From an uncultured delta proteobacterium (GTDB lineage Bacteria; Desulfobacterota; Binatia; UBA9968), in the NCBI GenBank assembly GCA_963847445.1, contig CAWJZV010000007.1:128001-192000 (forward strand): a stretch of 64,000 bases of DNA, read 5' to 3'. Shown one piece after another: positions 231-58,794 of this stretch. A program made the translations under genes and the position numbers. Numbering within the stretch: position 1 is the first letter of the stretch; every line of letters starts with the position of its first letter. A model generated the notes under the pieces. It saw nothing but the letters and a program-made list of their open reading frames with translations, was not told where the DNA came from and did not search any database.

Positions 231-278
231 GGGGTCGTTTCCTGCATTGCCACATACATGCGATAGCAAGACCTAATC
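231..278 (+). repeat. RAYT-end-derived hairpin, copy 1
   Basis: GGGGTCGTTTCCTGCATTGCCACATACATGCGATAGCAAGACCTAATC; TGCATTGCCACATA matches the upstream end of the element at 9821-10728. Confidence 0.7.
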
Positions 279-419
279 TTTTCGACTTCGTATTCGTTCC
301 AACCCGTCAAATCGTTTGTGCGAGTTGACAGAACGCCGGCCGTGCGGCTATTTTCCGCGAGAACAGCGCGCGCCGACAGTGCGCGATCTAGGGGCAGCCA
401 ACGGAAGGGAAAAGATACC

Positions 420-1607
420 ATGAAACGAAGCAGCGAAAGAATTCTCACGTCCCATGTCGGCAGCCTGGCCCGAGCCGACTCCCTGATACCTCTGCTGCGG
501 CTAAAAGAACAGGGACAGCCTTACGACCGCGACGAGCTCGCGCGGCGGGTGCGCGAGGCGGTAACCGACGTGGTGCGGCAACAGGTCGAAGCGGGCATCG
601 ATATTGTCACCGACGGCGAGCAGGGCAAATCGAGCTTCTACGGCTATGTCGTCGAACGCTTCAGCGGCTTCGAGCGCAAGCCGCCCGCTCCGGGCAACGA
701 GATGCGACCGCGGTCGGCGGGCAGGGAATATCTCGCTTTTCCCGACTACTACGCCTGGTCCGAACGCATCGCCGAACCGTTTGGCGGGCGCGGCGGGCGC
801 GGGCGCGGCGTCGATACTTGCACCGGGCCGGTCAGCTATAAAGGCCACGCGGCGGTTCAGGCCGACATCGCCAATCTCAAAGCGGCGACAAAAGGCCGCA
901 CCATCGAGGACGTCTTCATGCCTGCGATCTCGTCTGCCTACGTCGCGGCGACTTTTGCCAACGAATACTATCGCTCCCACGCAGAGTATGAGAAGGCCGT
1001 ATCCGACGCGCTGCGCGAAGAGTACAAGGCGATCGTCGACGCCGGATTCATTCTCCAGATCGACGATCCGCGCCTGGTCACCTATTATATGATGCACCCG
1101 GAGCTTAGCGTCGCCGACTGCCGGAAGTGGGCGGCCGAGCGCGTCGAAGTCATCAACGACTCGCTCCGCGGCATCCCGTCCGAGAAGGTCCGCTTTCATA
1201 CCTGCTACAGCATCGATGTCGGTCCGCGCATCCACGAGATGGCGCTGAAGGACATCGTCGACATCCTTCTGCAGATTAACGCCGGCGCCTATTCGTTCGA
1301 AGCGGCGAACCCGCGGCACGAACACGAATACCATGTCTTCGAGCGCGTCAAGCTGCCCGCCGGTAAGATCCTCATGCCGGGCGTGATCAGCCATACCACC
1401 AACCTGGTGGAGCACCCGGAATTGATCGCCGAACGAATCGTGCGGTTCGCAAAAATAGTCGGGCGTGAGAACGTCATCGCGGCAGCCGACTGCGGCTTTG
1501 CCGCCTCCGCTCTGCGCTTCAACGATACCCATCCCAGCGTGGCCTGGCTTAAGTTTGCCGCGTTGGCGGAGGGCGCCCGATTGGCGACCCGCGAGCTGTG
1601 GAATTGA
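420..1607 (+). CDS. Cobalamin-independent methionine synthase II family (MetE C-terminal-like) protein
   Basis: MKRSSERILTSHVGSLAR start, DGEQGK, Zn ligands HTC and ADCGF, EAANPRHEHE. Confidence 0.9.
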   Translation: MKRSSERILTSHVGSLARADSLIPLLRLKEQGQPYDRDELARRVREAVTDVVRQQVEAGIDIVTDGEQGKSSFYGYVVERFSGFERKPPAPGNEMRPRSAGREYLAFPDYYAWSERIAEPFGGRGGRGRGVDTCTGPVSYKGHAAVQADIANLKAATKGRTIEDVFMPAISSAYVAATFANEYYRSHAEYEKAVSDALREEYKAIVDAGFILQIDDPRLVTYYMMHPELSVADCRKWAAERVEVINDSLRGIPSEKVRFHTCYSIDVGPRIHEMALKDIVDILLQINAGAYSFEAANPRHEHEYHVFERVKLPAGKILMPGVISHTTNLVEHPELIAERIVRFAKIVGRENVIAAADCGFAASALRFNDTHPSVAWLKFAALAEGARLATRELWN

Positions 1608-1789
1608 GTGGCATGAGAGCGCCGCGCTCAAGCGTTATCGTGTCTGGTCAATTTACCGAAGCGGTATCCGCACGGACCAGGAAAGTCGAGAAGTAGAAGT
1701 TTGCCCCCGCGACCGAGAACTGGCGAATCTGAGTTCCGGCGTCCCGACCGATCACAGAAAGTGGGGCAGAGCCCTGTTCTTTTCGGTCA

Positions 1790-3643
1790 TCATTCTCCGT
1801 CTGCGGTTGTTTGACTATGGGCGTTCCATAGCACCGCAACGCCGACCAGGCTCGACACTATCGAAGCGGTGAACACAGCGATCTTGGCGGCGGCGAAATC
1901 GCTGGGCACCGGGAACGCCTGGCCCGAGATGAAAAGCGACATGGTAAAGCCGATACCGGCGAGCGCGCCGGCGCCGGCGAGTTGCCGCCAGGAATATGCG
2001 TTGGGCTTTTGCGCAAGCCCCGCCCGCACGGCCAAAGCCGACGCCGCAATGAATCCCAACGGCTTGCCGATCACCAGCCCAAGCGTGATCGCCAGCAGGA
2101 GTGGTTCACGGCCGCTCAGGACATCCGGCGTTATCGCCACACCCGCGTTCGCTAATGCAAAGATCGGCAGCACGAGATAGCTCGAACGCGGGCCGACATT
2201 GCGCAACAGCCGGTCCGCCGGAGATTCCAGACGATCATGGATCGCATCCAAGGCGCGCAGCGCGGGCACCGAAGCCCCTTGGCGCAATTGCTCGCCGCCG
2301 TGGCGCGCTTCCGCCGCCAGTATCGTATCCGCCTGCATCGCTAGCGTTCTAAAATCCGGCGGCGGCCGCGTCGGAATAAACGCGGCCAATAAGACGCCGG
2401 CCAACGTCGCGTGCAAACCGCCGGCGTGAACGCAAGCCCACAGGCCGACGCCCAGCAATAGATAAACTGACACGTTATAAACGGCCGATCGGTTCAGCAA
2501 GGCCAGCGCTCCGGTGAACGCTGCCGCAGCGGCGAGGTAGGCAAAATTCACAGCACCGGAATAAAAGAGAGCTACGACGATGATCGCCCCGATGTCGTCG
2601 ACAATCGCGGCCGCGGTCAAAAAGATACGCAGCTCGATCGGCACTCGCCTTCCCATCATCGCGATCAGAGCGACCGCGAAGGCGGTGTCTGTCGCCGTCG
2701 GCACGCCCCAGCCGATGGACCACGGCCCTGGTCGGATGACCAGCAGATAAAGCAGCGCCGGCACCGCCATGCCGCCGATCGCCGCTGCGATCGGCAACGC
2801 CGCGGAGCGCCAGCTAGCCAGATGACCGACGGTGAATTCGCGTTTGATCTCAAGGCCGACGACGAGGAAAAAGATCGTCAGCAGACCGTCATTGACCCAA
2901 TGCAGCAACGACATGCGAAAATCGGACTCGCCGAACGTGAAGCCGAAATAAGTGTGCCAAAATGCATCAAAGCCGGGGCCAAGCGCCGAGTTGGTGAGCC
3001 CAACGGCCAGGACCGACGCCAGCAGCAGCAACACGCCGGTCGAAGGCGCCCAGCTTGCAAAGCTCAGCGCGGCCGTGCGCACGCGATAGCCGAGCGGCGC
3101 GAGCATCGCATCGGAAAAAGAGCTTTCATCCCAGGGGCCGTCGTAGCGCCGTCCGTTGATGAAGAAGGTTGGCGTGAATTGCACACCGCTGGCGCGCGCG
3201 CTCTCGACATCGCGATCAACGCGGGCCTTGGCTCGCTCGATCGTCGCTTGCGTTTCTTGCCCATCTAGCGCATTTTGCCGCGCCAGGCCCAGCTCATCTG
3301 CGACGGCGCGCAGGTCATCCTCGGTCAGGGTTTTCGAGCGTGTCATCAGCGCGACATGGGCATCCCAGAACTTATCGGCATCCGCGATGGATTCGACCAG
3401 TTCGGCGGCGCGCCGGGCAATGTCGCTGCCGGTGATCGGGCGATGCCGGAACACGTAGCGCAGACGATCGCCGAACTCGCCGCGGACCTGGACAATGCGC
3501 TCGTTAGCGGCGCGGCAATGCGGGCAGTCGTAACTGCCATATTCCACAAGCGTGATCGGCGCCTCGTTCGGGCCGAGAATGTGATCCCGCCGGTCGTCCA
3601 CGAGATCATTGAGACGATGGTTCGTTTCGTTTAACCCTGACAT
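1790..3643 (-). CDS. nhaA: Na+/H+ antiporter NhaA with N-terminal thioredoxin/DsbA-like domain
   Basis: [44 protein letters not shown] motifs; N-terminal [10 protein letters not shown]. Confidence 0.93.
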
Positions 3644-3801
3644 CTCAGCTCCAATAATGAGGCATGGCTGGCGTTCTCGTTTATCCCAGGAAACCGCAAC
3701 CCACGACTGCTAGTTTTCCTTCGACCTACCATGCACTAACGGAAATTGGCTCCAGCACCGGCCGGGTTACGCAGTATCGAAGGATGCCCTTCGCCTGGCC
3801 G

Positions 3802-3853
3802 TCGGCGGCCGTCTGAACCCATCGATCCAATCAGGCAGGTCAGACGACACTAA
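3802..3853 (-). ncRNA. Candidate nhaA-I-like cis-regulatory RNA (Li+/Na+ riboswitch candidate)
   Basis: Sense strand GTGTCGTCTGACC...GGATCGA..GGGTTCAGACGGCCGCC forms a hairpin ending in GGCCGCC about 160 nt upstream of nhaA; resemblance to the motif is from memory, not from a search. Confidence 0.4.
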
Positions 3854-4004
3854 CGTATCGACAAATTTACGCAGCATGGCTGGCGAATTCAAACCCACGA
3901 GGTGATCGCTGGGCCAATGTTTGCGGCTCAAAGAGCGGTGGACGCCTTGTCATGATCGCTTGGTTGGCCGCGTGATTTCATGAGGGAGAGCTAAGGGATG
4001 TGTC

Positions 4005-4200
4005 CTGATAAATGGTAATGATTGCGGATTATGCAGTAGGCTTAGATCTCAACGTTTCCAGAGCCGGGCCGATCTCGACGAATCAGCGGAGAAAACTTTG
4101 CCGTCCTCGGTCTTGCAGAAAGATCTCCCGGCGCGATTGGCCATGACTGATGACTGGTAGGAAACGCCCCGGGGTATTCAATACGCAGCGGCCAGGCCAT
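4005..4200 (-). mobile_element. Degenerate 5' stub of RAYT-like Y1 transposase (family B)
   Basis: MAWPLRIEYPGAF...; homologous to 28225-28492 and 40615-40838. Confidence 0.8.
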
Positions 4201-4302
4201 GCAGTTTTTACCCCTACTCGCGCGTCCGCAACTCGCTGACTTGTGCCGCGAAACCATTTATCTTATCTTTCATGCTTCGATCCGCGTACCACCGACAACT
4301 CC

Positions 4303-5386: not shown

Positions 5387-5417
5387 CTCGGCTCGCGCAT
5401 CCGGGGAATTCACTACC

Positions 5418-6939: not shown

Positions 6940-6940
6940 A

Positions 6941-7619: not shown

Positions 7620-7902
7620 CAGGCAAAAACGTTTTTGCCGCGCCGCCGCTGAGCATAGTTTTTCGTTTGTATAGTATTGTCCGGCGCTGATGCGGTCCGC
7701 TGCTGGGTCGCGTCTTGTATAGCGACAAATGGGTTATTGCCAGAGCTGGCGCCGCACTTGGGTCCTCGGACGCCGCCGCCCGGTGCTGCGCCGACTCCCG
7801 CGCGATTGACTTTCGCAACCTGAGGCGAGACATTTTTGCATGTTTCCCGCGCCGGCTACATGTCCATGACAACCGTGCTGTCTTGAAGACTGGAGGTGTT
7901 CA

Positions 7903-9820: not shown

Positions 9821-10728
9821 GGGCCAGACCTTGCAATCCGATTTCCGCCAATATCCTAACGCGACTTCTCGAGCTGTTTGAGCCTGCGACTCACCGTCGC
9901 GTAATGCACTCCCAAATGGCTGGCGATCTCGTGCAACCGGTAGCCATGCTCGCGATACGCCTGCGCGATCCCTGCTTGTTTATTCTTGGCAAAGATCCGA
10001 TCCAAGGTCGGTTTGGCCGCTTTGAGCTGCGCCCGGGGAATCTCCTTTAGTTGCTTGCCTGCCGCCGAGTGCCGCTCGACAAACTTTTCGCTGCCCAAGT
10101 AAATCTGCCCTTTGAGCTCCTGCCATGGCCGTTCTGCCAATCCGTCGCTGACAAATGCTCGATAGCGCTTCTGCGCTGTCCGCCGGTGCTTGCCGAATTG
10201 CCCAAGGACCCAATCTACGCTCAACAACTCCGGCACTTTGGCCCGTCCCGCGGTGGCCCGGTAACTACTCCACTTCCACGCGGCATGCTCGACCCCGCCT
10301 TTGACTCGCGCCGGATTGAGCACGATATAACGGCACAGCTCCAACAGGTAAGACTCCTTCTCAACTAGGATTGCCTTGTATCGTCCTTGCAACAAATGCC
10401 CCACCCGCTTGTGGCGGCGATTGAAACTCTGAGTGTATAGACCGTTGAGCTGGCGCATGCCGATGGCGAGATTGCCGCGCGGCGTCTCGACCAGCAGATG
10501 ATAATGATTGGCCATCAAACAGTAGCCATGGCAGATCCACCCGTAGCGCGAGACCACCTGGGTGAGCGTGTCGAGAAACAACTCTCGGTCAGCGTCGCTG
10601 AAAAAAATCTTCTGGCGGGCGTTGCCGCGGCTGGTCAGATGGTAGACTGCTCCCGCGAATTCCATCCGTAGCGGTCGTGCCATGGCGGGGTAATATCAGT
10701 GCTTATGTGGCAATGCAAGACCTGACCC
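9821..10728 (-). mobile_element. Intact RAYT/IS200-superfamily Y1 HUH element (family A) with imperfect inverted ends
   Basis: Left end GGGCCAGACCTTGCAAT; right end ATGCAAGACCTGACCC; encloses the transposase gene. Confidence 0.85.
9856..10683 (-). CDS. REP-associated-type tyrosine (Y1) transposase with C-terminal HTH
   Basis: MARPLR, YHLTSRGN, CLMANHYHLL (HUH), QGRYKA, YIVLNP (catalytic Tyr), WSSY, C-terminal EIASHLGVHYATVSR. Confidence 0.93.
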   Translation of the reverse strand: MARPLRMEFAGAVYHLTSRGNARQKIFFSDADRELFLDTLTQVVSRYGWICHGYCLMANHYHLLVETPRGNLAIGMRQLNGLYTQSFNRRHKRVGHLLQGRYKAILVEKESYLLELCRYIVLNPARVKGGVEHAAWKWSSYRATAGRAKVPELLSVDWVLGQFGKHRRTAQKRYRAFVSDGLAERPWQELKGQIYLGSEKFVERHSAAGKQLKEIPRAQLKAAKPTLDRIFAKNKQAGIAQAYREHGYRLHEIASHLGVHYATVSRRLKQLEKSR

Positions 10729-10769
10729 TTTGTTGCGCTATTGCTATTGGTTGACTCTCGGAACTGATT

Positions 10770-11855
10770 TTACCAGCGACGAGTTTCGCCGAGCTTGAAG
10801 ATCCAGGCACGTGACGCATCGATGTTGCGGCGGTGGAAATCGGCTAGTAACCGTTGCGGTGGCTCGTCGAGCGGCTCTTCCGCGAGATCGAAGGTGCCCC
10901 AGTGGATGCCGAGTAGCACGCGGGCGTTGAGGTCGATGAAGGCCTGCACCGCTTCTTCCGGCGTCAGGTGCACAGCTTTCATGATTTCTGGAGGTTGATA
11001 GGCGCCGATGGCGATCGCCGCGATGTCGAACGGACCGAGCCGCTGGCCGGCTTCCTTGAATCCCGCGAAATAACCGGTATCGCCGGAGAAATAAAGTCGT
11101 CGCTCGGGGCTCAACACCGCCCATGACGCCCACAGTCGTTGGTTCGCATCCGACAATGTTCGTTGGGAAAAATGCTGCGCCGGCACGCAGACGAATTTCA
11201 CGGTGCGATATTCGCGCTCCTGCCACCAGTCCATCTCTTCGACCCGGGTCATGCCGTTCTCCGCGAACCACGCCTTGAGACCGAGCGGAACCAAAAAGAG
11301 CGGATCGCGCGCCTCGGCAAGGCGCTTTACGGTGTTGAGGTCCAGATGGTCGTAGTGATCGTGCGAGATCAACACCACATCGATCCGCGGCAAATCTTCG
11401 AATGCCAGCCCGGGAGGGCTTAGACGGCGCGGGCCGCCCCAAGACACCGGACTTGCTCGTTCGCTCCACTGCGGGTCGGTGAGAATATTGACGCCGTTGA
11501 TTTGTACCAACAGGGTCGCAGTGGCCGATCCAGGTAATGCTCGGATTGACACTGCCGGCGCGCAGGAGGCGCCGTCGTTGGCGACGCGCGGCGCGACGAA
11601 GGTCCGCGGTGACATGGAAGTCGCCCACAATCGGCGCACAATGAAACTCCAGCGCGTCCACGTTGAAGGGCGCTGGAAATCCGCATTGGGATTGCGAAAA
11701 CCGTCCACCGCGTGATGCGCGGGTTGTCCGGCGATGGGCTGGTTTGCGACACCCGCACAGGCGATGAACCAGATTACAAAAAAAATTGCACAGTAACCGC
11801 GGCGCATAGATGCAGCCGGTATTGAAACATTTCTAGTGGGCGAAACGCTAGCCAA
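10770..11855 (-). CDS. MBL-fold metallo-hydrolase, RomA/NAPE-PLD-like; local compensating frameshifts near 11500-11570
   Basis: ISHDHYDHLD, AQHFSQR, FSGDTGY, IHWGTF. Confidence 0.9.
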   Translation of the reverse strand: MASVSPTRNVSIPAASMRRGYCAIFFVIWFIACAGVANQPIAGQPAHHAVDGFRNPNADFQRPSTWTRWSFIVRRLWATSMSPRTFVAPRVANDGASCAPAVSIRALPGSATATLLVQINGVNILTDPQWSERASPVSWGGPRRLSPPGLAFEDLPRIDVVLISHDHYDHLDLNTVKRLAEARDPLFLVPLGLKAWFAENGMTRVEEMDWWQEREYRTVKFVCVPAQHFSQRTLSDANQRLWASWAVLSPERRLYFSGDTGYFAGFKEAGQRLGPFDIAAIAIGAYQPPEIMKAVHLTPEEAVQAFIDLNARVLLGIHWGTFDLAEEPLDEPPQRLLADFHRRNIDASRAWIFKLGETRRW

Positions 11856-12958: not shown

Positions 12959-13013
12959 GGGGCCGGGTCTTGCAATGCGACAACGGATTGGTCGATTGCG
13001 AGACCTGGTCCCC
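12959..13013 (+). repeat. RAYT-end-derived hairpin, copy 2
   Basis: GGGGCCGGGTCTTGCAATGCGACAAC...ATTGCGAGACCTGGTCCCC. Confidence 0.85.
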
Positions 13014-16140: not shown

Positions 16141-16809
16141 GCTATTGGTTGACTCTCGGAACTGATTTTACCACCGACGAGTTTCGCCGAGCTTGAAGAT
16201 CCAGGCACGTGACGCATCCATGTTGCGGCGGTGGAAATCGGCTAGTAACCGTTGCGGTGGCTCATCGAGCGGCTCTTCCGCGAGATCGAAGGTGCCCCAG
16301 TGGATGCCGAGTAGCACGCGGGCGTTGAGGTCGATGAAGGCCTGCACCGCTTCTTCCGGCGTCAGGTGCACAGCTTTCATGATTTCCGGAGGTTGATAGG
16401 CGCCGATAGCGATCGCCGCGATGTCGAACGGACCGAGCCGCTGGCCGGCTTCCTTGAATCCCGCGAAATAACCGGTATCGCCGGAGAAATAAAGTCGTCG
16501 CTCGGGGCTCAACACCGCCCATGACGCCCACAGTCGTTGGTTCGCATCCGACAATGTTCGTTGGGAAAAATGCTGCGCCGGCACGCAGGCGAATTTCACG
16601 GTGCGATATTCGCGCTCCTGCCACCAGTCCATCTCTTCGACCCGGGTCATGCCGTTCTCCGCGAACCACGCCTTGAGACCGAGCGGAACCAAAAAGAGCG
16701 GATCACGCGCCTCGGCAAGGCGCTTTACGGTGTTGAGGTCCAGATGGTCGTAGTGATCGTGCGAGATCAACACCACATCGATCCGCGGCAAATCTTCGAA
16801 TGCCAGCCC
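16141..16809 (-). pseudogene. 5'-truncated, about 99% identical duplicate of MBL gene segment 10743-11411
   Basis: 669-bp direct repeat with about 7 mostly synonymous substitutions. Confidence 0.92.
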
Positions 16810-19356: not shown

Positions 19357-19571
19357 CCATGACTCACGGGCTCTACTCGAAAGTTCGATCGAGTCTGGGC
19401 GCGACCCAACAGAAATTGACGGTGAGAGCTGCACATGAACAAGTATGGAGCGCTGAGGCAACTGGCCATATTCTCGGTTGCAAGCTTAGCGCCAGACCAT
19501 CTGGGTTAGCGAGAAACAACCTTTGGTCCGTATGGCTGAAAAAATTCTTCTAGCGGGCTTTACTGCTGCCG

Positions 19572-19960
19572 TCAAATTTCGCTGGCAGGCGGCGAGAGTT
19601 TGGCCTGAGGAAAGGTGGCGCTAAGCACCCAGTCATCGTCCGAATGCAGGACGCGCACCTCGGCGCAATGCCCGATCGCTGCCGCGAGGCTGCCGCCGGT
19701 TTTGGCCTTCTCCAATGGTACCGCCGCGGCCATTAAGCAAACCTTGCCGACCGCCGGCCCGCCGTCCTGGCGTAACCGATCGATAGTCTCGAGCGCAACG
19801 CGGCTACCGAGTGAATGGCCGATGAAATGGACAACGTGAAGATTGGGCATGGAATGAAGATGGCGCGCCAAACACCATCCCGCTTCTCTCTGACGTCTCC
19901 ACGGTCGCGGCATAGATGAGAAAATCCGCATAGTCCAACCAGCCCCACCATGCGGCGTCG
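19572..19960 (-). pseudogene. Alpha/beta hydrolase (DUF900-like) fragment fused behind a RAYT stub
   Basis: HFIGHSLGSRVALE, CLMAAAVP, VLHSDDDWVL. Confidence 0.7.
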
Positions 19961-19961
19961 C

Positions 19962-20253
19962 CAGGCGACACCAGTAGATGGTAATGTTTGCTCATCAAGC
20001 AGTATGCATATTCTTAACTTTGCAAAGCCGGCGATTTGGCGAGCAAGTCGAACAAACTTCGCTGTCCTTTATCGGCCGGGATGAGTCCTGCGCGGTTGGC
20101 CAGAATCGATGACGCGGTCAATTGCCCCGCGATATTGCATGCGCATGGATCAGGTCATGAGGATCGTTTATTTCATGCTTGGTCATCTGTCTAGAGTTAA
20201 CGTTTACAATCGGTTTGTTCTTCGATGGGGCAAGGCAAGACCTGACCTCGGGG
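19962..20253 (-). mobile_element. Degenerate 5' stub of RAYT family B plus GCAAGACCTGACC end motif
   Basis: AYCLMSKHYHLLVS; upstream GGATCGTTTATTTCATGC shared with the 28.4 kb and 40.8 kb copies. Confidence 0.8.
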
Positions 20254-25896: not shown

Positions 25897-25946
25897 GGGG
25901 GCGAGATTTGCACTGCGACAAATGTGTTACCGCGAGACCTGATCCC
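25897..25946 (+). repeat. RAYT-end-derived hairpin, copy 3
   Basis: GGGGGCGAGATTTGCACTGCGACAAATGTGTTACCGCGAGACCTGATCCC. Confidence 0.75.
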
Positions 25947-27667: not shown

Positions 27668-28210
27668 ATGAACCCTCTGCTTTCCCGAACGGCGAAGTAC
27701 GTCGCGGTGCTCGTAATCATTACGTTGACCGCGACGTACTTTTACTTCAGGTTCATTGGCTGGAGCCATCCATTTGCCAAGTTGATCGGTGCTTATAGGT
27801 ATCACGTTGTTACACTCGGGGATTATGTCCGATACAAGCGAGATCCAAAACGCTTTAATAATGATTCTTCGGCAGCCCTGAGCTTTGATTGCGAGCGAAT
27901 CCGAGACGATTTCGTCAAGCTGACTCAATCGATAATCTCACCAGAGCTATCGACATCAACAGAGACAATCGTTTCGCGGGAAGGCAGCACCCTTCATCTT
28001 GGCGATCCCAGCGTGTCTGGCAGTGAAGCATTTGCCGCGTGGAAGAGCCAAGCAATCAATCTAGCTACGATCCAGCACCCAAACGAGGCGGGCCACTACG
28101 GGACTGTGCTGCAAGCTCTGTTTACATCTATCAGGTTACACGGACGCAATGCGGATGAAGAGTTTAGCGTCGATACCAAAAGAGGCAGTAAATTTGATGC
28201 ATGTGGGTGA
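27668..28210 (+). CDS. Membrane-anchored hypothetical protein, probably 3'-truncated by the RAYT stub
   Basis: N-terminal TM helix, lower GC, ends next to the RAYT fragment. Confidence 0.5.
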   Translation: MNPLLSRTAKYVAVLVIITLTATYFYFRFIGWSHPFAKLIGAYRYHVVTLGDYVRYKRDPKRFNNDSSAALSFDCERIRDDFVKLTQSIISPELSTSTETIVSREGSTLHLGDPSVSGSEAFAAWKSQAINLATIQHPNEAGHYGTVLQALFTSIRLHGRNADEEFSVDTKRGSKFDACG

Positions 28211-28224
28211 GCCACATTCACCCG

Positions 28225-28492
28225 CCGCCGGGGTCGACACCAGTAGATGGTAATGGTTGCTCAAAAAGCAGTAGGCATGGATCTCAATTTTCCAGAGCCG
28301 GGCGATCTCGGCCAGTAAGTCGAGAAAAGTTTGCCGTCCTTTTATCTTCAAGAAAGATGTCCCGGCGCGATTTGGCCACGATTGATCACGTGGTAGAACG
28401 CCCCGCGGTATTCAATACGCAGCGGTCGGGCCATGCGGATCGTTTATTTCATGCCCGGTCGTAGGTCAAAAGCTAAACCTAGACTTGACCCC
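28225..28492 (-). mobile_element. 5' stub of RAYT family B with terminal AGACTTGACCCC
   Basis: MARPLRIEYRGAFYHVINRG...HAYCFLSNHYHLLVSTP; ATG at 28434. Confidence 0.88.
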
Positions 28493-40593: not shown

Positions 40594-40838
40594 GGGTCAG
40601 GATGACCCCATCAATCAGTAGGCATGGATCTCGATTTCCAGTGCCGGGCGATCTCGGCGAGTAAGTCGAGAAAAGTTTGCCGTCCTTTATCTTCCAGAAA
40701 GATGTCCCGGCGCGATTAGCCACGATTGATCACGTGGTAGAACGCCCCGGAGTATTCAATACGCAGCGGTCGGGCCATGCGGATCGTTTATTTCATGCCC
40801 AGTCGTCGGTCAAGAGCTAAACGTAGACTTGAGACCCC
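40594..40838 (-). mobile_element. 5' stub of RAYT family B bounded by GGGTCAGGATGACCCC and AGACTTGAGACCCC
   Basis: MARPLRIEYSGAFYHVINRG; closely similar to 28225-28492. Confidence 0.88.
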
Positions 40839-41122
40839 TTTGTCGCTCCCATTCACCATTCCAGATCGGGATTGTGAGTGGAACTGGAAGCCATTTTTGA
40901 GGGGTGAGAAATAATCGATCATTATATTATAAGGACTATAACTCTATGGTTATGATCGAAGCCATGGTGCGAAATTAGAACTGTTAAGGTATATTACTTC
41001 GAGTCCTGAACAGATAAGCAGCTTTCAAAGCGCTTTGGCTCCATAGAGATTGAGACTTCCCTTCACGGATTAAGTACGATATGCGATGGTCGATAGGATC
41101 GACGTTTCGCTGAATTGAGACA

Positions 41123-42845: not shown

Positions 42846-42946
42846 TTCGACTCACCACGACGGGCTCGACTTCATACAAGCCGTTGACAATTTTTTCTAT
42901 GCCGGCTTCATCGATCTGGTCAATGATCTCGGGCTTGGCTTTTTCC
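42846..42946 (-). pseudogene. Degenerate 3' remnant of a tctC-like gene
   Basis: Aligns to 62490-62587 (GACGGCGGGCTCGATTTCATACAATCCGTT...GCTTGGCCTTTTCC). Confidence 0.7.
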
Positions 42947-43118
42947 TAGTCTAAGACTCAACCCGTCTCTCTAGCTTGCGAACGCCTACGCAGTGATGGC
43001 TCACTGAGACCCTCAACGGATAACTACCGACGTCTTCCAGCTTGTTCGTCAAAGCCCCGCGGCGCATCGTTAGCGAAAGTGACCAGCTAGCGCTTGCCGA
43101 GCGTGAGGAAAGGTTAAT

Positions 43119-43474
43119 GGACGTTGTTGACTAGCTGGACAAAGTCTAAGGGATAGCAGACAGAGTCAGAGGCGGTAAGCGTCGCTACCGCAAGCAAGGC
43201 TCGATAGTCCAGGGAGGCTTCACCGTGGGATGATTCGAGGGATCCATGCGTGGGTTATCGGGGAGGCGCACTGGACAAATGTCGTATGGCTGACAGAATT
43301 CAGAAACGGCAGCCGACGTGGAAAGATGCCTACGATAGGAGCGTCATTCGGATGCAAGTTGGTAGAAGATTTTGCCGTCACGATCGCCGAGATAGCGCTG
43401 CAACTTGGAAAATTGACTTCAGGATTTTTGAAGTTATTGACGAAACGTTTGTCCTGCTAGTCAACAACGTACCC
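43119..43474. mobile_element. MITE family M, full copy 1
   Basis: Inverted ends GGACGTTGTTGACTAGCTGGACAAA / TTTGTCCTGCTAGTCAACAACGT; TAA on both flanks. Confidence 0.85.
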
Positions 43475-45747: not shown

Positions 45748-45890
45748 GGACGTTGTTGACTAGCTGGACAAAGTCCAAGGGATAGCCGAGAGAGCCGGTG
45801 TGGGATCTCCGAGATAGCGTTCCAATCAGAAATTTGACTTAAGAATTTTAAAGTTATTGACGAAACGTTTGTCCCGCTAGTCAACAACGT
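45748..45890. mobile_element. MITE family M, internally deleted copy
   Basis: Same inverted ends, 143 bp. Confidence 0.85.
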
Positions 45891-47182: not shown

Positions 47183-47260
47183 TGGATATGTGCCCTAGCT
47201 ATTGAGTAGCTCGGTCTTCCTATCACATGAGCCAGATTTCGAAAACATTGCCCGGTTTGT

Positions 47261-47480
47261 ATTTCTTATGCGTCAAGTCAGGGGAAGAGCAGAGGAACGC
47301 CCCCAGCTGGTTTATCTGGCGCGGGAGTGGAGCGGGATAACGATCAAGGAGTTGGGGCGGCGGCTGCATCGGGACCCGTCGATGATTAGCCGGTTGTACG
47401 GTTGGTACCAGGGACATCGGAATAGACAAACGGAAGAGAGGCTGACCCGAGCACTGTCTAAATAATCAATACTCAGGCCC
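47261..47480 (+). mobile_element. 3' (HTH) stub of a third RAYT-like transposase
   Basis: LVYLAREWSGITIKELGRRLHRDPSMISRLY, followed by AATCAATACTCAGGCCC. Confidence 0.75.
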
Positions 47481-47513
47481 TATGCCTGCCTATGCCTGGA
47501 CATCTGTGTATCA

Positions 47514-47559
47514 GGATTGCGCCTTGCAGTGGGAAAATGTGCTATTGCAAGACCTCGCC
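47514..47559 (+). repeat. RAYT-end-derived hairpin, copy 4
   Basis: GGATTGCGCCTTGCAGTGGGAAAATGTGCTATTGCAAGACCTCGCC. Confidence 0.7.
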
Positions 47560-47708
47560 TTAAGTACTGTGATTATCGGAGATATCTTCTTTCCTTCCTG
47601 AATGATAGCTTTACGGCGAGGATCAGAATCGCATTTCACAATTTGACGACATACTCACCAAAGACCTTAGCCGAATTCTTGAAATCCGAAAAAAGGATAA
47701 AGCGATAT

Positions 47709-47940: not shown

Positions 47941-47962
47941 TTCTTCATCCAGTGGTTGCTGT

Positions 47963-48008
47963 GGTCGAGTCTTGGATTGCGACAAATGTCTGATCTCAAG
48001 ACCTGGGC
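47963..48008 (+). repeat. RAYT-end-derived hairpin, copy 5
   Basis: GGTCGAGTCTTGGATTGCGACAAATGTCTGATCTCAAGACCTGGGC. Confidence 0.75.
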
Positions 48009-48483
48009 TCGGCGTCGCTGGCGCTATCTCAAATTCTTCCAACACCTCCGCGCTCGGTAATCCGATCGCCACGGCGTGGCGCCGATAACCCATATTCACA
48101 CTGACCCGAAGCTCTATTGGTTTCTTGCCTGACACGCAGCCCTCCTTCTGTAAAACAAGATCGATTCATCATCCTTCGGTCTCCTCTACTTACAGAGCCA
48201 CGTATTCGGTGAGAAGATGGCACCATCATCGATTCCTCAGATGATGCAGGTGACGAGGGCGGCATTTCAAGCCGTTGCGAGCCTGAAAGAACAGGCCACT
48301 GACCCCAAGAGCCACACCCTCGTCAGAAACTTCTTTAGTCGATTCTTTTCGTTTCCGCTACCTGTTAGATTCCGATGGTAGACCCTATGCCGATGCGCGA
48401 TCAACGGACGTGCTAACAGGGGTAGCTGGGGGTATTCGCGCCGGCAGCACAGCAAAATGCGAGTTCAATAACGGGATTATTTC

Positions 48484-49556
48484 ATGGCCAAAGAGAGGAA
48501 AGCAAAGATCAAAACGTCTAACGTCTTCCTCGATACGGAAGTCTTTGTTGAAGCAAGCTTCAACTACAATTCACCACGCTTCGCATCTCTTACCGAGCTT
48601 GCTAAAACTCAACGAATAACGGTTTTCCTAACCGACCTGGTATTACGCGGGATAAAGGCCAACATCAAAGACACTGTTGAACGCGCTATCGCCGCATCAA
48701 GGCCTCAGCCAATATTTCGAAACTCGTCAGTACCCCAGGTGAAGGCGCTATTCAAGGGGCTCGACGCTGCTGCCATAAGAAGAGGACCTTTTCACTCAAC
48801 TCGATGCTTTCATCAAGAACGCTGATATCACAATCTTAGCGGTGAAAAACCAGTTCCTCACTCCGGTCCTTGATAATTATTTTAATCGACTTCCTCCATT
48901 CGGTATCGGGAAGAACAAAGCGGAATTCCCCGACTCCTTGAACATTGAAACGCTTAAAGAATGGTGTCGCACAAAAAAACAAAACATGGCCATTGTCACC
49001 CGAGATCAAGGAATAAAGGCTGCCTGCTCAGATGATGGACCTTGTTACCATTTCGAGGACCTTCCCAAATTTCTTGATGCAGTGGCCTCGGAAGGCAAGG
49101 CTCTTTCAGGATTCATTCGCAAGATGATCAGGCGTTTTGACGACAAGAGATCCTGAAAAAAGCCGAGTACGCGTTTCCGAACCTCGGTTTCTATTTAGAG
49201 GACCAGGAAGGTGACGTTAACACCGTTGAAGTGACCGAAATAGAGTACGACGGAAAAATCGAGATCATTTCGCTGGCGACTGAGACAGCAATAGTCGAGA
49301 TGCCTGCAACGATTACCTTCGACGCCGAAATAAGCTACGACGACTCTAGTACCGGGATCTGGGATAGTGAGGACAAGGTCCTCCTCTTCCAAGAAACGAA
49401 AGAGGAAACGGTGACATCGACGAGTGCATCGCAGCATCGCTGTTCGAGATGAGTTTTAAGCCTCTACAACCCAGTTCCTTCCATATACGCCGCGTCTGGT
49501 TCGAGGGGAAGCAGGATATCCCGGTCGAATCGGACGAGGGTTGGCCTTACAAGTAG
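48484..49556 (+). CDS. PIN-like (DUF4935) domain protein with several frameshifts
   Basis: VFLDTEVF, YFNRLPPF..KKAEFPD-like motif, IVTRD; acidic C-terminal region. Confidence 0.8.
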
Positions 49557-49592
49557 CACGGCATCCGATTTGACGGGCAAAGCGGTCAAGCC

Positions 49593-49933
49593 ACGTTGTT
49601 GAATAGCTGGACAAAGTCTAAGGGATAGCCGACAGATAAGTCGGAGGCGATAATAAGCAAGGCTCGATAGTGCGGGTACGCTCCAGTATTACGATGATCC
49701 GGGGGATCAAGGTGGTTATCTCGGAGGCGTGCAAGATAAACGGCATATCGCTGACAGAACTCAGAAGCGGCAGCCGACGTAGAAAGATGCCTACGATAAA
49801 AGTACCATTCAGGTGCAAGTTGGTGAAAGATTTTGCCGTAGCGATCGCCGAGATAGCGCTCCAACTCGGAAAATCGACTTCAGGGTTTTTAAAGTTATTG
49901 ACGAAATGTTTGTCCAGCTAGTCAACAACGTCC
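49593..49933. mobile_element. MITE family M, full copy 2
   Basis: Same ends; collinear with 43119-43474 but diverged. Confidence 0.85.
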
Positions 49934-54466: not shown

Positions 54467-54503
54467 GGGACGTTGTTGACTAGCTGGACAAAGTTTTTGA
54501 AAA
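54467..54503. mobile_element. MITE family M, isolated left end
   Basis: GGGACGTTGTTGACTAGCTGGACAAAGT. Confidence 0.75.
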
Positions 54504-54683: not shown

Positions 54684-54893
54684 TCAGCTCGGCCGCGCGA
54701 GGATCTTCGCGTACAGCCGGTCGTACTCCCGCTGGTTGATCGCGCCTTCCTTCAGCGCGCGTTGCAGGTCAGTGAGTTCCTGTCCTTTGGAGATGGTCGT
54801 CGTGCCCTGCACTCGGACGTAGGTATCGCTGCCACATCCTGCGAGCGTTCCAATGACGAGCGCGGCGAGGGCAAAGTCAAAAATCTTTTGCAT
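54684..54893 (-). CDS. Small SHOCT-like lipoprotein
   Basis: LAGC lipobox; GQELTDLQRALKEGAINQREYD. Confidence 0.8.
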   Translation of the reverse strand: MQKIFDFALAALVIGTLAGCGSDTYVRVQGTTTISKGQELTDLQRALKEGAINQREYDRLYAKILARPS

Positions 54894-54912
54894 AAAGCGT
54901 CTCCGTCCGCCG

Positions 54913-55122
54913 TCACTTCACGTTGTCGATCAGCTGCTCTTTTTGGCGCTCGTAGTCGCGCTCGCTGACCGCGCCCGAGTCACGCGCCCTCTTGAGGTCG
55001 ATCAGCTGCTGCCCGACCGACACGCTGACCGTGGGCTGCAATACCTCGTTTCCGCCGCAACCCGCCGCCGTCAGCGTGGCTGCGAGTGCCGCCGCGGCTG
55101 TCATCCTCCGGCCTTTCGTCAT
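54913..55122 (-). CDS. Small SHOCT-like lipoprotein (paralogue)
   Basis: AAGC lipobox; GQQLIDLKRARDSGAVSERDYE. Confidence 0.8.
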   Translation of the reverse strand: MTKGRRMTAAAALAATLTAAGCGGNEVLQPTVSVSVGQQLIDLKRARDSGAVSERDYERQKEQLIDNVK

Positions 55123-55134
55123 CGCGTTCTCCCC

Positions 55135-55205
55135 TCAGGACCAGCGTCACTTCGAGCGCGCCGAGCTTCTCGACCGCGCACGCGACCTTGTCGCCAACCT
55201 TGAGC
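55135..55205 (-). pseudogene. Orphan 3' end resembling a fumarylacetoacetate hydrolase family gene
   Basis: LKVGDKVACAVEKLGALEVTLV. Confidence 0.5.
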
Positions 55206-55232
55206 TATTTATAGATATCTAAACCAACTTTT

Positions 55233-55269
55233 TCAATCCTTCGTACTCGCCGAGCGAGTTTTTGCTTCC
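55233..55269 (-). mobile_element. Short 3' stub of RAYT family B
   Basis: TCAATCCTTCGTACTCGCCGAGCGAGTTTTT matches 37032-37065. Confidence 0.65.
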
Positions 55270-55373
55270 GCAGAGGGGGGATGCCTCCACAGCTTTGTGC
55301 GTGCCGAACGGCGTGGTATACGACCATAGCATCGGCGGCAGCGAAGCACTGAAGAAAGAAGGAGAGAACGAGC

Positions 55374-56627: not shown

Positions 56628-57028
56628 GCGGATCGTAAGATCGGGATCGGACCGGGGAAATCAGTCGAATTTGCGACAGAAGATAAAATGAAAGGCGTCT
56701 TTAAAAGCCTAGAGGCTACTTTTTCGCTCTAAAAAAACCCCGCTAAGAAAAGCCAATGCCCCACACTTTTGTTTAGGCCGTTCGAGTCGTTCAACCGCTT
56801 CGCTCAGTTCAAGCCGTTGAAGATGAAAACATCGAGAGCCTTGGAACTCAACCTGATCGGACCCCGCCACCTGACTGGTGCAGTAGTCAACGTTCAGAGC
56901 GCAGAATTGCGTTGACAGGCCGCAGAGTTTTCCCTAGCATTCCGGTGCGCCGAAGACTTTCGATCTTCGTGGAAGCATTCGAACGCTACCGGAGATTTTG
57001 GCGCAAGATTTTCAATGAGGTGGAAGGC

Positions 57029-58003
57029 ATGGCATGCTCTAGACGCACGGTGCAATTTCGACTTTTTGTCTGGACAATTCTTCCGGCAGTCGCGTTCGGC
57101 GCTGTTTTTCCCGACGTGACGGTCGCGCAGGCGCAAAAAATCAGAATCGCCTATTCGAGCCGCAGCAACACCGTCACGCCGTTATACGTCGCCGCCGACA
57201 AGGGCTTGTTTCGTGATGAAGGGCTGGAGGTGGAACTGATTCAGGTGAGCCCGCGCCTCGGCGCGATGGCGGTGATGAACGGCGACGTTGCGTTCACCAC
57301 GTCATTCACCAGTACCTTTCGGGCCATTCTTCAAGGCGTTCCACTGAAGCTGGTTTTAGTCGCGCTCAAAAAAGGCGTGTATTATTTGGTCACCCGGCCC
57401 GAAATCAAAAACGTCCAGGAGCTCAAAGGGAAAAAACTCGGGATCGCAACGATACGCGGCACCGACAGTATCGTCGCGGAGGAACTCCTCCGCTCAAAGG
57501 GGTTTAATCCCACTCAGCTCCAACAGATCGTCATCGGCGATACGGCGCTTCGAGCCCAGGCGCTCATGACCGGAGTTGTTCAGGCCGTGTCGTTGTCGCC
57601 GCCGCACGACCTGCTGCTTAAAAACTTGGGCTATAATATTTTGGCCGGCCCGCCCGAGGTCGGCTTGCCGGCGTCGGGTTTATTCACCTCGAATCGTCTG
57701 CTGAAAGAGAATCCGCAGGTGGTAAACCGAAGCTTGCGCGCGGTCCTTAGGGCCAATCGCTTTATCGCGGCGAACCGCCAGGAGACCATTGCCGTGATGT
57801 CAAAATGGCTGGCGCAGACTCAAGAGGTAGCGGGCCAGTCCTACGACGTTGAGCTAAAAGCGCTCACCAAAGACGGGCAAATGACCGACGCTGAGTTGGA
57901 AAGCCTGATCGATCGACTGGGCGAGAAAAAAGCTGCGTTGGACGGAGTGAGAGACTTCAATCCCATCCGCCAGGCGATCAAGGAATTAGACACCAAACAA
58001 TGA
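57029..58003 (+). CDS. ABC transporter substrate-binding protein (SsuA/THI5-like)
   Basis: DKGLFRDEGLEVELI, ELKGKKLGI. Confidence 0.9.
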   Translation: MACSRRTVQFRLFVWTILPAVAFGAVFPDVTVAQAQKIRIAYSSRSNTVTPLYVAADKGLFRDEGLEVELIQVSPRLGAMAVMNGDVAFTTSFTSTFRAILQGVPLKLVLVALKKGVYYLVTRPEIKNVQELKGKKLGIATIRGTDSIVAEELLRSKGFNPTQLQQIVIGDTALRAQALMTGVVQAVSLSPPHDLLLKNLGYNILAGPPEVGLPASGLFTSNRLLKENPQVVNRSLRAVLRANRFIAANRQETIAVMSKWLAQTQEVAGQSYDVELKALTKDGQMTDAELESLIDRLGEKKAALDGVRDFNPIRQAIKELDTKQ

Positions 58004-58126
58004 CGCAGAGTTCCTCTAAGAAAAACCGATGCCACGCGCTAATTAAGTAACGAAGCCGTGCAATCGCTTCGCTGCATTCAAAACGTTAAAAACTAACGGC
58101 GGTTAAAGGGTGCAAGTTTTCAAAGT

Positions 58127-58317
58127 TCAAGCACGGATTGGAATGGCACACTTCCACGCGTACGCAGTGACGGGCTCACTAAGACCCCTCAACGGATAGG
58201 ATCCGACGTCTTCCAGCTGGCTCTCGCAGCCCGCGCGTTCAACAAAGTCCTTCGAAAACAGCACCGATCGTTTGACCTCCTTGGTCAAGGCTTCGAGTCT
58301 TGACGCGATGTTGACCG
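58127..58317 (-). pseudogene. Duplicated 3' end of the adenylate/guanylate cyclase gene
   Basis: 58157-58317 matches 59081-59242 with mostly synonymous changes. Confidence 0.9.
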
Positions 58318-58363
58318 GGCGCTCCTTGCAGTGCGACAAATATGCGATCGCAAGACCGGGCGC
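58317..58363 (+). repeat. RAYT-end-derived hairpin, copy 6
   Basis: GGGCGCTCCTTGCAGTGCGACAAATATGCGATCGCAAGACCGGGCGC. Confidence 0.78.
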
Positions 58364-58378
58364 TAACCTCGTCGCTAT

Positions 58379-58600
58379 TCATGCGGCTGTTTCGGTCCAG
58401 ACTTGCCGCCACGCTGCGAATTCGGCGGGTCTTATCTCGTAGCGCGCGTAATTCCCTTCGTGCAGGCCGAGCAGTTCGCTTTCGGCCATCTCCCTGAATC
58501 GCTCGCGGTCGGCAGGAGCCACGTTCTCCTGGATCCATTGCGCGACGTGAGCGGCCGCCGCCTTCCGGGCCATGCGCCCGTGTATGACCTCGCTATATGC
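58379..58600 (-). pseudogene. Orphan 3' end of a Fic-family protein gene
   Basis: DRERFREMAESELLGLHEGNYARYEIRPAEFAAW, resembling the C-terminus of Fic proteins. Confidence 0.65.
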
Positions 58601-58745
58601 GCAATTAACCAATCTATACACAGTCATAGTTGCGCATAGTTGTTTAAAGCTGCGTTTATGTAGCATATGCGCAACTATGGAATCCCGCAGAGCCACCAGA
58701 CGCCTCTGTAAAATCAAGGCCTAACTGGTTACGCGCGGAGATTAC

Positions 58746-58794
58746 GGGTCGTGTATTGCGGTGCGACAAATCCGTGATTGCAAGACCTGGAACC
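58746..58794 (+). repeat. RAYT-end-derived hairpin, copy 7
   Basis: GGGTCGTGTATTGCGGTGCGACAAATCCGTGATTGCAAGACCTGGAACC. Confidence 0.78.

Follow-up and report, generated by a model that had tools for sequence, protein, structure and literature searches.

Gene-less miniature copies of TIRtron ends, crowded in one orientation in a rearranging part of an uncultured Binatia genome

The window analysed here, a 64,000-nt stretch of the genome of an uncultured bacterium of the class Binatia, is a graveyard of mobile elements: it contains one intact gene-bearing TIRtron, five TIRYT gene remnants that represent at least two other TIRYT families, and eight miniature copies, in a catabolic gene region in which the order of blocks differs between sister species. 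TIRtrons are elements of about 0.9 kb that consist of one TIRYT gene between two inverted ends of about 25 nt each, and TIRYTs are RAYT-like Y1/HUH single-strand DNA nucleases with a C-terminal helix-turn-helix (HTH) tail. The intact element (908 nt, positions 9821–10728, minus strand) is arranged as left end, gene, right end, with the left (upstream) terminal inverted repeat at 10703–10728, the right (downstream) one at 9821–9846, and 45 nt from the left tip to the ATG. The gene (9856–10683, minus strand) encodes a protein of 275 amino acids in which a Y1/HUH nuclease domain (Pfam Y1_Tnp, 42.9 bits) with the motifs H60-Y-H62 and W138-S-S-Y141 is followed by a C-terminal HTH domain (HTH_23, 32.1 bits; residues 237–272); both histidines are present in all 101 family members and the tyrosine in 87 of the 101. 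The earlier note on this DNA labelled the gene a RAYT, but it is a TIRYT rather than a classical RAYT: the protein scores 64.8 bits against the NCBIfam model REP_Tyr_transpos, for which the cut-off is 80, carries the HTH_23 tail, and is flanked by terminal inverted repeats, not by GTAG-tagged REP hairpins. The element belongs to the published TIRYT/TIRtron class (Di Nocera, De Gregorio & Rocco 2013, BMC Genomics 14:522), which is TnpA-Y1 subclass 2.1, with HTH_23 or DnaA_C tails, in the available portion of a later classification (Quentin 2018, PMC6006769).

The layout of the intact element recurs at 68 of 80 homologous loci. The GGGTCAGGTCTT tip (also given as GGGGTCAGGTCTT) is found upstream at 74 of the 80, which come from many phyla, and its complement downstream at 72, with both ends present at 68. 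At 50 of the 80 loci, identity between the two ends of one locus is 96% over the outer 12 nt and 73.5% over the inner 12 nt, the latter compared with 47% across loci; such covariation is equally expected if a protein reads the ends as duplex, and is no proof of a hairpin. Related genes are multi-copy in sister genomes, with up to 30 matches. The orthologous element in the genome G004 retains the last ~90 codons, then the left end, having lost the catalytic half of the gene.

The gene remnants are scattered along the window. A second TIRYT family is represented by three 5' remnants on the minus strand: N-terminal codons in a broken frame at 4009–4262 (family HMM E 0.0046), a sequence with its own left end, truncated at the HUH motif, at 28139–28488 (tblastn; HMM E 5.6e-13), and a sequence at 40609–40841 (E 3.7e-9) that is 93% identical to the remnant at 28266–28488. 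The remnant at 19487–20248 (minus strand, E 2e-5) has a left-end-like tip at 20233–20248, and nucleotides 19460–20181 are missing from the collinear locus of G004. The fifth remnant, at 47202–47465 on the plus strand, is the C-terminal (HTH) part of a third TIRYT-like gene (family HMM E 2.9e-4, profile positions 241–295), for which Pfam yields only weak HTH matches below the cut-offs. The window also contains a 669-nt duplication at 99% identity.

The earlier note reported seven short hairpins of about 50 nt, all in one orientation. All seven are present (cores from 231–280 through 58745–58794), an eighth co-oriented copy had been overlooked, and the common orientation holds for eight of eight, all on the plus strand (p = 0.008). 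Copy 1 (231–280; nhmmer E 1.8e-10, covariance model E 1.3e-9), a left end plus a right end with no gene, precedes a MetE-like gene by 38 nt, has an orthologous copy of ~71% identity in G004, and shows a fold z-score of +0.29. The additional copy 2 (7704–7753; nhmmer E 8.4e-7, covariance model E 1.7e-10, fold z −0.39) is flanked by two plus-strand genes. Copy 3 (12959–13012) splits the 3' arm of a terminator-like stem behind an OmpA-family gene, and no counterpart was detected downstream of the corresponding gene in either G018 or G044. Copy 4 (25897–25946; nhmmer E 3.5e-12) lies between divergent genes; its G004 orthologue is ~71% identical within a block that is 94.3% identical, and homology with G014 ends 14 nt ahead of it. 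Copy 5 (47513–47561; nhmmer E 4.7e-10, fold z 0.05) is located 48 nt past the C-terminal HTH remnant, and copy 6 (47961–48010; nhmmer E 6.9e-12) is followed by a 360-nt repeat (48026–48385) present in many related genomes. Copies 7 (58315–58364) and 8 (58745–58794) bracket the remains of a Fic-family gene (PF02661, 38.5 bits, cut-off 24) that is intact in G022. The outer tip of copy 7 coincides with the point at which a 163-nt duplication from the 3' end of a cyclase gene stops, and homology with both the cyclase paralogue and G022 starts or stops exactly at its outermost base, as would be expected of a tip behaving as a mobile end.

The repeats clearly exceed chance similarity. With up to 3 mismatches allowed, the left-half motif has 7 matches in the window (shuffle mean 2.22; 1 of 100 shuffles reaches 7), and the right-half motif has 16 (shuffle mean 5.97; none of 100 shuffles reaches 16). 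A profile built from the seven copies recovers all of them within the whole 7.19-Mb genome (E 3.5e-12 to 4.7e-10), and leave-one-out profiles find the omitted copy in each of the seven cases (E 9.8e-9 to 1.4e-3). The entire assembly contains short copies at 14 places, a lower bound because it is a draft of 48 contigs that is 91.8% complete; eight of the 14 fall within 58.6 kb (binomial probability of at least eight by chance, 5.6e-14). Of 89 other genomes from the bacterial family, 48 contain the same short family, with 1–22 matches each.

As proposed in the earlier note, the copies are fused ends: in each, the left half corresponds to the upstream end and the right half to the downstream end of the gene-bearing element, and the two inverted ends are joined directly. 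The further claim that they equal the ends of the resident element does not hold, since the left-end sequences differ: the short copies carry GGGGTCG and TGCGACAAAT, whereas the resident left end has GGGTCAG and TGCCACATAA. The resident element is therefore not the direct parent, and an 80%-identical element from another genome matches the short copies better. The left–right junction is at the same place in all 14 genome copies and in the 59 distinct copies collected from the source and related genomes, none of which retains any internal gene sequence. The family therefore goes back to one ancestral internal deletion, which took out all sequence between the inner boundaries of the two ends and left a unit of ~50 nt that then multiplied as such; the internally reduced orthologous element in G004 makes this deletion route visible. 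The eight repeats are real, gene-less miniature copies built from two inverted TIRtron ends.

The description of the repeats as hairpins applies to only one of the eight window copies. As single-stranded DNA, copy 3 folds at −17.6 kcal/mol (z −5.2; none of 200 shuffles equals it), with 15 Watson–Crick and 2 G–T pairs among 17, and is the sole well-preserved hairpin in the window; the other seven have fold z-scores from −0.98 to +0.29 and have lost the stem. Across the 14 genome copies, 132 of 238 stem cells are Watson–Crick. The window copies are old and no longer maintained. The earlier note also suggested that the left arm decays while the right one is kept by selection on one functional half. 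Scored against the family-wide end consensus, the eight copies show 69% identity in the left and 77% in the right arm (Wilcoxon p = 0.06), and conserved columns occur in both halves. Furthermore, the two G004 orthologous copies are ~70% identical, less than the adjoining non-coding DNA (~80–88%) in a 6.2-kb block that is 94% identical. Given that one of eight copies folds and that the orthologues have diverged beyond their flanks, no selection on one half is seen.

Taken together, these observations make it probable that the repeats are non-autonomous miniature TIRtron derivatives mobilised in trans by a TIRYT. The two ends would pair into a hairpin on one DNA strand, in which the recurrent mismatches are G–T on the top strand, where the opposite strand would have A–C. 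Among the stem cells of the 59 copies, 116 are G–T and 39 A–C; this excess was inherited from one master copy and therefore does not represent many independent events, and the short family contains almost no compensatory changes among the 59 copies. A TIRYT acting in trans may recognise the hairpin where the DNA is single-stranded, probably at the fork during replication, cut at its foot and re-join the unit nearby on the same strand, which would yield local, co-oriented clusters. We know of no published biochemistry for any TIRYT, so both mobilisation in trans and the single-strand hairpin substrate are proposed by analogy to IS608 and to TnpA-REP of E. coli. If the mechanism is strand-specific and coupled to the fork, the copies should keep a constant orientation relative to replication, but GC skew reveals no consistent relation: the window copies are on the weakly C-rich strand, and five of the six copies elsewhere are on the G-rich strand. 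Nor does this model explain why the eight short copies occupy one strand and the intact gene, together with all four 5' remnants, the other. No clean empty site or target-site duplication was found for any copy.

It has been considered whether the fused ends are not mere passengers but left-end/right-end or attachment sites, such that the Y1 enzyme excises and re-inserts the DNA between two co-oriented copies, building hairpin–cargo–hairpin arrays and shuffling gene blocks without inversion; we regard this proposal as unlikely. It would accommodate the orientation of neighbouring copies on a contig, of which 25 of 26 pairs are co-oriented by hand count from genome listings (15 of 16 without the source genome, G000, and its G022 orthologue), as well as contig C17 of G014, where all 12 hits (E < 0.01, within 100 kb) share a strand; strand-specific local hopping alone, however, would equally give co-oriented neighbours. 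Unrelated cargo lies between pairs (Fic, HigB-like, a small membrane protein, glycosyltransferases, binding proteins), and the Fic unit, 92–96% identical between G000 and G022, is preceded in G000 by the ~163-nt cyclase 3'-end duplicate and in G022 by ~170-nt duplicates that derive from the 3' end of another gene. Yet the right boundary of this shared unit is 58 nt beyond copy 8, away from the tip, and the match to the Fic homologues in G023, G021, G004 and G008 begins only immediately beyond the hairpin, with none detected there. In G004, the 12.7 kb between copies 1 and 3 are absent, the outer flanks being 63 nt apart around a left half-copy, although what remains at this "empty" site is not one clean copy. 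In G004, window blocks differ in order but are not inverted, yet duplication followed by loss, for which the 669-nt duplication is a precedent, could also shuffle them; in our own reading of the first 28 kb, synteny breaks at two of four hairpin-bearing gaps compared to ~6 of ~16 hairpin-free ones, that is, without enrichment. Integron attC sites and Acinetobacter dif modules, which bear comparison on this reading only, are likewise short imperfect palindromes that bracket units of one to a few genes in a variable region, but their sequences are unrelated, and the mobility of such units here is conjectural. The scan of 55 window ORFs revealed neither an integron integrase nor any other tyrosine recombinase.

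Independent loss of the gene by internal deletion from a former full-length element at each site appears very improbable: such deletion does occur, as in the G004 orthologue, and the window contains five gene remnants, but where independent deletions are seen (in G004 and in the remnants truncated at the HUH motif) their boundaries differ, in contrast to the single junction shared by the 14 copies here and the 59 from related genomes. A host-selected motif, be it an operator for an HTH protein or other regulator, or a structured RNA or terminator, is scarcely credible, because the conserved inner core TTGCA.TGCGACAAAT ... ATTGCAAGACC and the extragenic location of every copy are outweighed by the divergence of orthologous copies beyond their flanks, by positions upstream, downstream, and between convergent as well as divergent genes with the strand fixed whatever the gene direction, by seven of eight copies folding no better than shuffles and zero Rfam matches in the window, and since the core conservation is partly an ascertainment effect in copies found through profile similarity.

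The preferred reading, trans-mobilised miniature derivatives, places the family near several known systems. REPINs of the REPIN-RAYT systems (Bertels & Rainey 2011, PMC3116915; Bertels et al. 2017, PMC5581495) are also short hairpin-forming units of two inverted halves, related to the flanks of a single Y1 transposase-like gene and assumed to be mobilised in trans; here, however, the protein falls short of the RAYT equivalog cut-off, a GTAG tag is absent, the copies number 14 instead of tens to hundreds and decay rather than persist, and related genes are multi-copy in sister genomes and spread across phyla. IS200/IS605 elements (IS608, ISDra2) and their gene-less derivatives share the Y1/HUH transposase, a presumed strand-specific single-strand DNA hairpin substrate and an expected orientation bias, but have a separate subterminal hairpin at each end and no terminal inverted repeats, whereas here the two ends would pair with each other. 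Classical bacterial MITEs, too, carry no gene and reduce a parent insertion sequence to its two inverted ends; they differ in that no target-site duplication was found here, the parent encodes an HUH and not a DDE enzyme, and ~50 nt is below their usual range.

The closest match is to TIRtrons, with GGGGWSAS ends and repeat families that occur as singles, dimers or groups (PMC3733652, as far as the available portion goes). The RAYT-like Y1/HUH gene with a C-terminal HTH_23, the long terminal inverted repeats with a GGGGWSAS-fitting tip, the ends without a gene in moderately small families, and the patchy distribution across many phyla all agree, with no essential difference. Most of the copies are decaying relics, crowded in one orientation within one rearranging part of the genome. 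What goes beyond the published accounts, within the portions available, is a spacer-free dimer with a fixed junction, at low copy number in half of a bacterial family; the local crowding of its copies; the near-universal co-orientation of neighbours (25 of 26 pairs across genomes); and copy pairs that bracket cargo genes.

The gene-bearing element of this region (9821-10728, minus strand) encodes a 275-residue protein (9856-10683, minus strand) with a Y1_Tnp domain followed by HTH_23. A Pfam search identifies Y1_Tnp with an E-value of 6.2e-11 (42.9 bits, cut-off 23) and an HTH_23 tail at residues 237-272 (32.1 bits, cut-off 24.6). All 101 aligned family members have H60, H62 and W138, and 87 of them have Y141; the conserved W-S-S-Y motif of these relatives occupies residues 138-141, and Y141 is predicted to be the catalytic residue given its place beside the serine motif described in Quentin 2018. 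Homologues with 52-80% identity come from records labelled as many different phyla.

The two ends of the intact element are inverted copies of each other: the left end spans 10728-10703, with its tip 45 nt before the ATG, and the right end spans 9821-9846. At 80 homologous loci, the tip GGGTCAGGTCTT (two mismatches or fewer) is found upstream of the gene in 74 cases, mostly 45 nt ahead of the start, its complement downstream in 72, and both in 68; an extra G precedes GGGTCAGGTCTT at 43 of the 56 loci checked. Among the 50 loci from which both ends could be extracted, left and right ends share 96% identity over the outer 12 nt, and the inner 12 nt come in 46 distinct versions, with 73.5% identity within a locus versus 47% across loci.

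The gene and its ends belong to the published TIRYT/TIRtron class, named in 2013 (PMC3733652) and classified in 2018 (PMC6006769). In its passages on these elements, PMC3733652 describes RAYT-like genes with long terminal inverted repeats that share GGGGWSAS, the ends forming “moderately abundant” families as singles, dimers or groups. The corresponding passages of PMC6006769 equate the class with TnpA-Y1 subclass 2.1, which has HTH_23, HTH_28 or DnaA_C-like tails and for which they report no REP found. The present protein resembles this class in its Y1/HUH core with the HUH motif and the tyrosine, in flanking terminal inverted repeats rather than self-folding REP hairpins (the layout of 68 of the 80 loci), and in the tip, since each resident end fits seven of the eight GGGGWSAS positions, the left tip having just three G and the right tip reading GGGCCAG; the C-terminal HTH_23 is shared with subclass 2.1, an assignment by domain. 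The class is thus already known; our literature search on TIRYT found few papers that use the term and no biochemical study.

The label RAYT, applied in an earlier note on this DNA, is not appropriate: the protein scores 64.8 bits against the curated RAYT model NF047646 (REP_Tyr_transpos), below its cut-off of 80, and has the HTH_23 tail and inverted ends. These ends run from a G run to a C run, and neither tip carries a GTAG tag (the tag definition used for the RAYT test being a GTAG- or CGTC-tagged REP palindrome, as given in the relevant part of PMC3733652). RAYT/REPtron/REPIN repeats are dispersed in tens to hundreds per genome, whereas the short repeats discussed below occupy 14 places in 7.19 Mb, eight of them in 58.6 kb, with 0-22 matches in related genomes (lower bounds, the assembly being a draft). 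IS200/IS605 elements lack terminal inverted repeats, have separate subterminal hairpins and occur in several near-identical copies; here, the ends are inverted and there is a single intact copy, the next full-length paralogue in the genome being 36% identical. A classical MITE would combine inverted ends with a target-site duplication; the former are present, and no direct repeat flanks the copies. Unlike an integron attC array, the window has no integrase family among its 55 ORFs (E 1e-5 or better).

Eight short, gene-less copies of about 50 nt lie in the window, all on the plus strand (p = 0.008): copies 1 to 8 at 231-280, 7704-7753, 12959-13012, 25897-25946, 47513-47561, 47961-48010, 58315-58364 and 58745-58794. 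The seven repeats reported in the earlier note are genuine, and copy 2 is added to them. The left-half motif (three mismatches or fewer) has seven matches in the window, namely five of the claimed copies, the new one (at 7715) and the opposite-strand left end of the gene-bearing element, against a shuffle mean of 2.22, with one of 100 shuffles reaching seven; the right-half motif has 16 matches against 5.97, a number attained in 0 of 100 shuffles. A profile of the seven claimed copies recovers all of them from the 7,191,591-base assembly (48 contigs) with E-values of 3.5e-12 to 4.7e-10, as well as copy 2 (7705, E 8.4e-7), five copies elsewhere (C15:6570, C32:12705, C14:97355, C14:99554 and C6:176223) and a weakest one at C15:43168 (E 0.099); leave-one-out profiles still find 7/7 (E 9.8e-9 to 1.4e-3). 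Searching with a covariance model brings 15 matches, which fall at 14 places since one is matched on both strands; the assembly is a draft, and these copy numbers are lower bounds. The presence of 8 of the 14 copies within 58.6 kb is highly non-random (binomial 5.6e-14). The short copies are extragenic without exception and occur in every arrangement relative to the neighbouring genes. Core 9- to 10-mers and GTCTTG...CAAGAC pairs (26 places) occur genome-wide at about chance level; no large family is hidden in the assembly. The strict pattern AGGTCTTG-N8-38-CAAGACCT, applied to 41 genomes, matches one place in each of seven and none in the genome under study, being overly strict for finding copies in relatives. 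There are no Rfam matches in the window, and the DNA inside the close pair 47513/47961 shows no homology to that inside 58315/58745.

The proposal that these units are fused element ends holds: the left end (...TTGCA.TGCGACAAAT) runs straight into the right end (GTGTGATTGCAAGACC...), and the internal sequence is absent. The left/right asymmetry of their inner parts matches that of the closest full-length relatives, so that the orientation assignment, plus for the short copies and minus for the intact gene, is sound. The junction is identical in the 14 genome copies and throughout a set of 59 distinct copies assembled from the present genome and its relatives; a single deletion event thus came first, and the short unit then spread as such. 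The resident intact element is not their direct parent: at left-end positions where it departs from the short copies, an 80%-identical element from elsewhere shares their sequence. In the comparison genome G004, the orthologue of the intact element adjoins the same dehydrogenase gene but keeps only residues 186-274 of the TIRYT gene followed by the left end, and so shows internal deletion under way. Relatives of the gene are found in 35 of 41 genomes of the order, the highest number in a single genome being 30 matches. The short family is shared by 17 of the 30 other genomes in the genus and, at 1-22 matches each, by 48 of the 89 others in the family; the order's two remaining families have it in 1/5 and 0/28 genomes. 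Three unpublished genomes (G005, G085 and G093) are included in these tallies, each contributing one match.

The description of all copies as hairpins stands for copy 3 but fails for the other window copies, which fold no better than shuffles. When 11 copies are folded as single-stranded DNA, only copy 3 (12959; -17.6 kcal/mol, z -5.2) and C15:6562 (z -2.7) beat shuffled sequences, the remaining nine having z-scores of -1.5 to +0.39. In the 14 genome copies, Watson-Crick pairs fill 132 of the 238 stem cells, and RNAalifold predicts just a 5-pair stem (-2.4 kcal/mol); variation within the short family is too small for a covariation test. The contrast between a decaying left arm and a preserved right one amounts to 69% versus 77% identity (p = 0.06), and the suggestion of selection on one half is rejected, given that invariant columns are present in both halves alike and orthologous copies diverge more than their flanks. 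Specifically, copies 1 and 4 are about 70% identical to their G004 orthologues (read from alignments), compared with about 80-88% for the adjoining non-coding DNA and 94.3% for the 6.2-kb block around copy 4, and the changes between orthologous copies do not preserve pairing. The short copies are thus not maintained. Copy 3, the only good hairpin in the window, is probably younger: no copy is found after the corresponding gene of G018 or G044, and in the present genome it breaks into the terminator-like stem found at this position.

Neither the flanks of the copies nor those of 56 full-length loci contain a convincing target motif or duplication; all that the latter show is a preference for A/T at the third base outside the tip and, in some cases, palindromic flanks. 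At some full-length loci (L073, L100 and L084), the 8 nt outside both tips are mutually reverse-complementary; the inverted repeat may be longer there, or else the element occupies the centre of a palindrome such as a terminator. A search for empty sites yields no clean case: for copy 4, homology to G014 breaks 14 nt before the copy and the far flank is different; for copy 3, homology to G018 and G044 ends 15 nt before the copy, with unrelated DNA downstream; and for copies 1 and 3, the outer-flank junction in G004 carries a half-copy and extra bases.

Anatomy, spread as a unit, decay and a mobile tip are the parts of the mechanism that we regard as established, the last because the outer base of copy 7 is both the exact stop of homology with a 163-nt duplicate of a cyclase 3' end and the exact start of homology with G022. 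Over 59 copies, the stem comprises 649 Watson-Crick, 116 G-T, 39 A-C and 191 other cells and 8 gaps, against 133-348 Watson-Crick cells in slid controls; the left and right ends would therefore seem able to pair on one strand. The G-T excess, a hint and not a statistic as it is inherited from one master copy, suggests that the top strand folds better than the bottom one. Assuming IS608 and the E. coli TnpA-REP system to be suitable models for Y1 action on a single-strand hairpin, the Y1 enzyme might act on such a hairpin at the replication fork and reinsert it nearby on the same strand, which would yield both crowding and co-orientation. Against the fork model, GC skew as a measure of replication direction shows no consistent relation to copy orientation, and against the mechanism, the gene-bearing element and four 5' remnants are all opposite in strand to the short copies.

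A more far-reaching explanation is that the fused-ends hairpins are working Y1/HUH recombination sites, such that DNA between co-oriented copies is lifted out and reinserted at another copy. Hairpin-cargo-hairpin units carrying Fic, HigB-like toxins or catabolic genes would then form arrays that behave as cassette systems in the style of integrons or dif modules, with a single-strand DNA nuclease in place of a tyrosine recombinase. This would explain why 25 of 26 neighbouring pairs on the same contig point the same way (a hand count across genomes in which orthologous pairs are not independent), the local crowding, and the inversion-free shuffling between sister species, G004 and G014 having the blocks of the window region in other orders with none inverted. 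Furthermore, all 12 matches with E < 0.01 on one contig (G014:C17) lie on one strand, copy pairs bracket diverse cargo, and the 12.7 kb between copies 1 and 3 are missing at the matching G004 site, where the outer flanks are 63 nt apart around the half-copy. However, hairpin-bearing gaps are not enriched at synteny breaks (2/4 versus about 6/16 others, by our own reading), a clean excision product was not found, and strand-specific local hopping accounts for co-orientation more simply. We consider such exchange of cargo unlikely; if real, it would be a new mode of gene shuffling in bacteria.

The region encodes UbiD-type decarboxylases, CoA ligases, hydratases, amidohydrolases and NMT1-type binding proteins, and contains five further TIRYT gene remnants from other subfamilies. 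A 176-nt stretch (47304-47479) overlapping a C-terminal TIRYT remnant recurs with 83-96% identity just downstream of TIRYT paralogues (G014:C29, G002:C700 and G011:C513), and so represents the tail of a third subfamily of elements. A separate miniature element of 189 nt (58861-59049) has its own inverted ends of about 15 nt (CTAGTGTCCTG...) and a G/C-rich palindromic centre; it looks recently active, with 96% and 93% identical copies on C27 and C13 of the same genome. A 360-nt repeat (48026-48385) directly follows copy 6 and is widespread in the genus, many of whose genomes have it with about 80% identity; in the present genome it also occurs at C15:6813-7180, close to a different short copy, and in G015 the distance between it and the closest TIRYT orthologue is 1.4 kb. 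Another dispersed repeat family (43121-43470, 45748-45890, 49593-49931 and 54468-54494; 80-94% identity) resides in the right half of the window, which is low in GC (51-55%, versus 56-61% in the left half).

A duplication of an MBL-fold (Lactamase_B_2) gene covers 669 nt at 99% identity (10743-11411 and 16141-16809); 15 nt separate the start of one copy from the intact TIRtron's left tip, and in G004 the gene is single and undivided. Gene 3'-end fragments of about 100-215 nt (42847-43061, 58156-58317 and G022:C631), extra copies derived from the cyclase gene (59103-60224) and a binding-protein gene (62464-63495), lie beside inserted DNA, that of the binding-protein gene three times in 4 kb of G022; they resemble scars left where DNA inserted repeatedly at the 3' ends of genes. 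Between copies 7 and 8, a 112-codon ORF (58379-58717, minus strand) is the remainder of a 479-residue Fic/DOC-family gene that is intact in G022 (L140:55-1491), about 1.24 kb being missing here. The adjacent ORFs 48484-48825 and 48842-49156 match the first and last parts of one PIN_12 model and are probably one PIN-domain gene split by a stop codon or frameshift.

The annotation of these repeats is thereby corrected, from RAYT/REP hairpins under selection to TIRYT-derived dimers. The locus is a compact natural test set, with an intact gene, a well-kept mini-copy (12959) and graded decayed copies, to which the sister genomes add a case of internal deletion under way. For a strand-specific mechanism, the shared orientation of neighbouring copies is a specific prediction open to checking.
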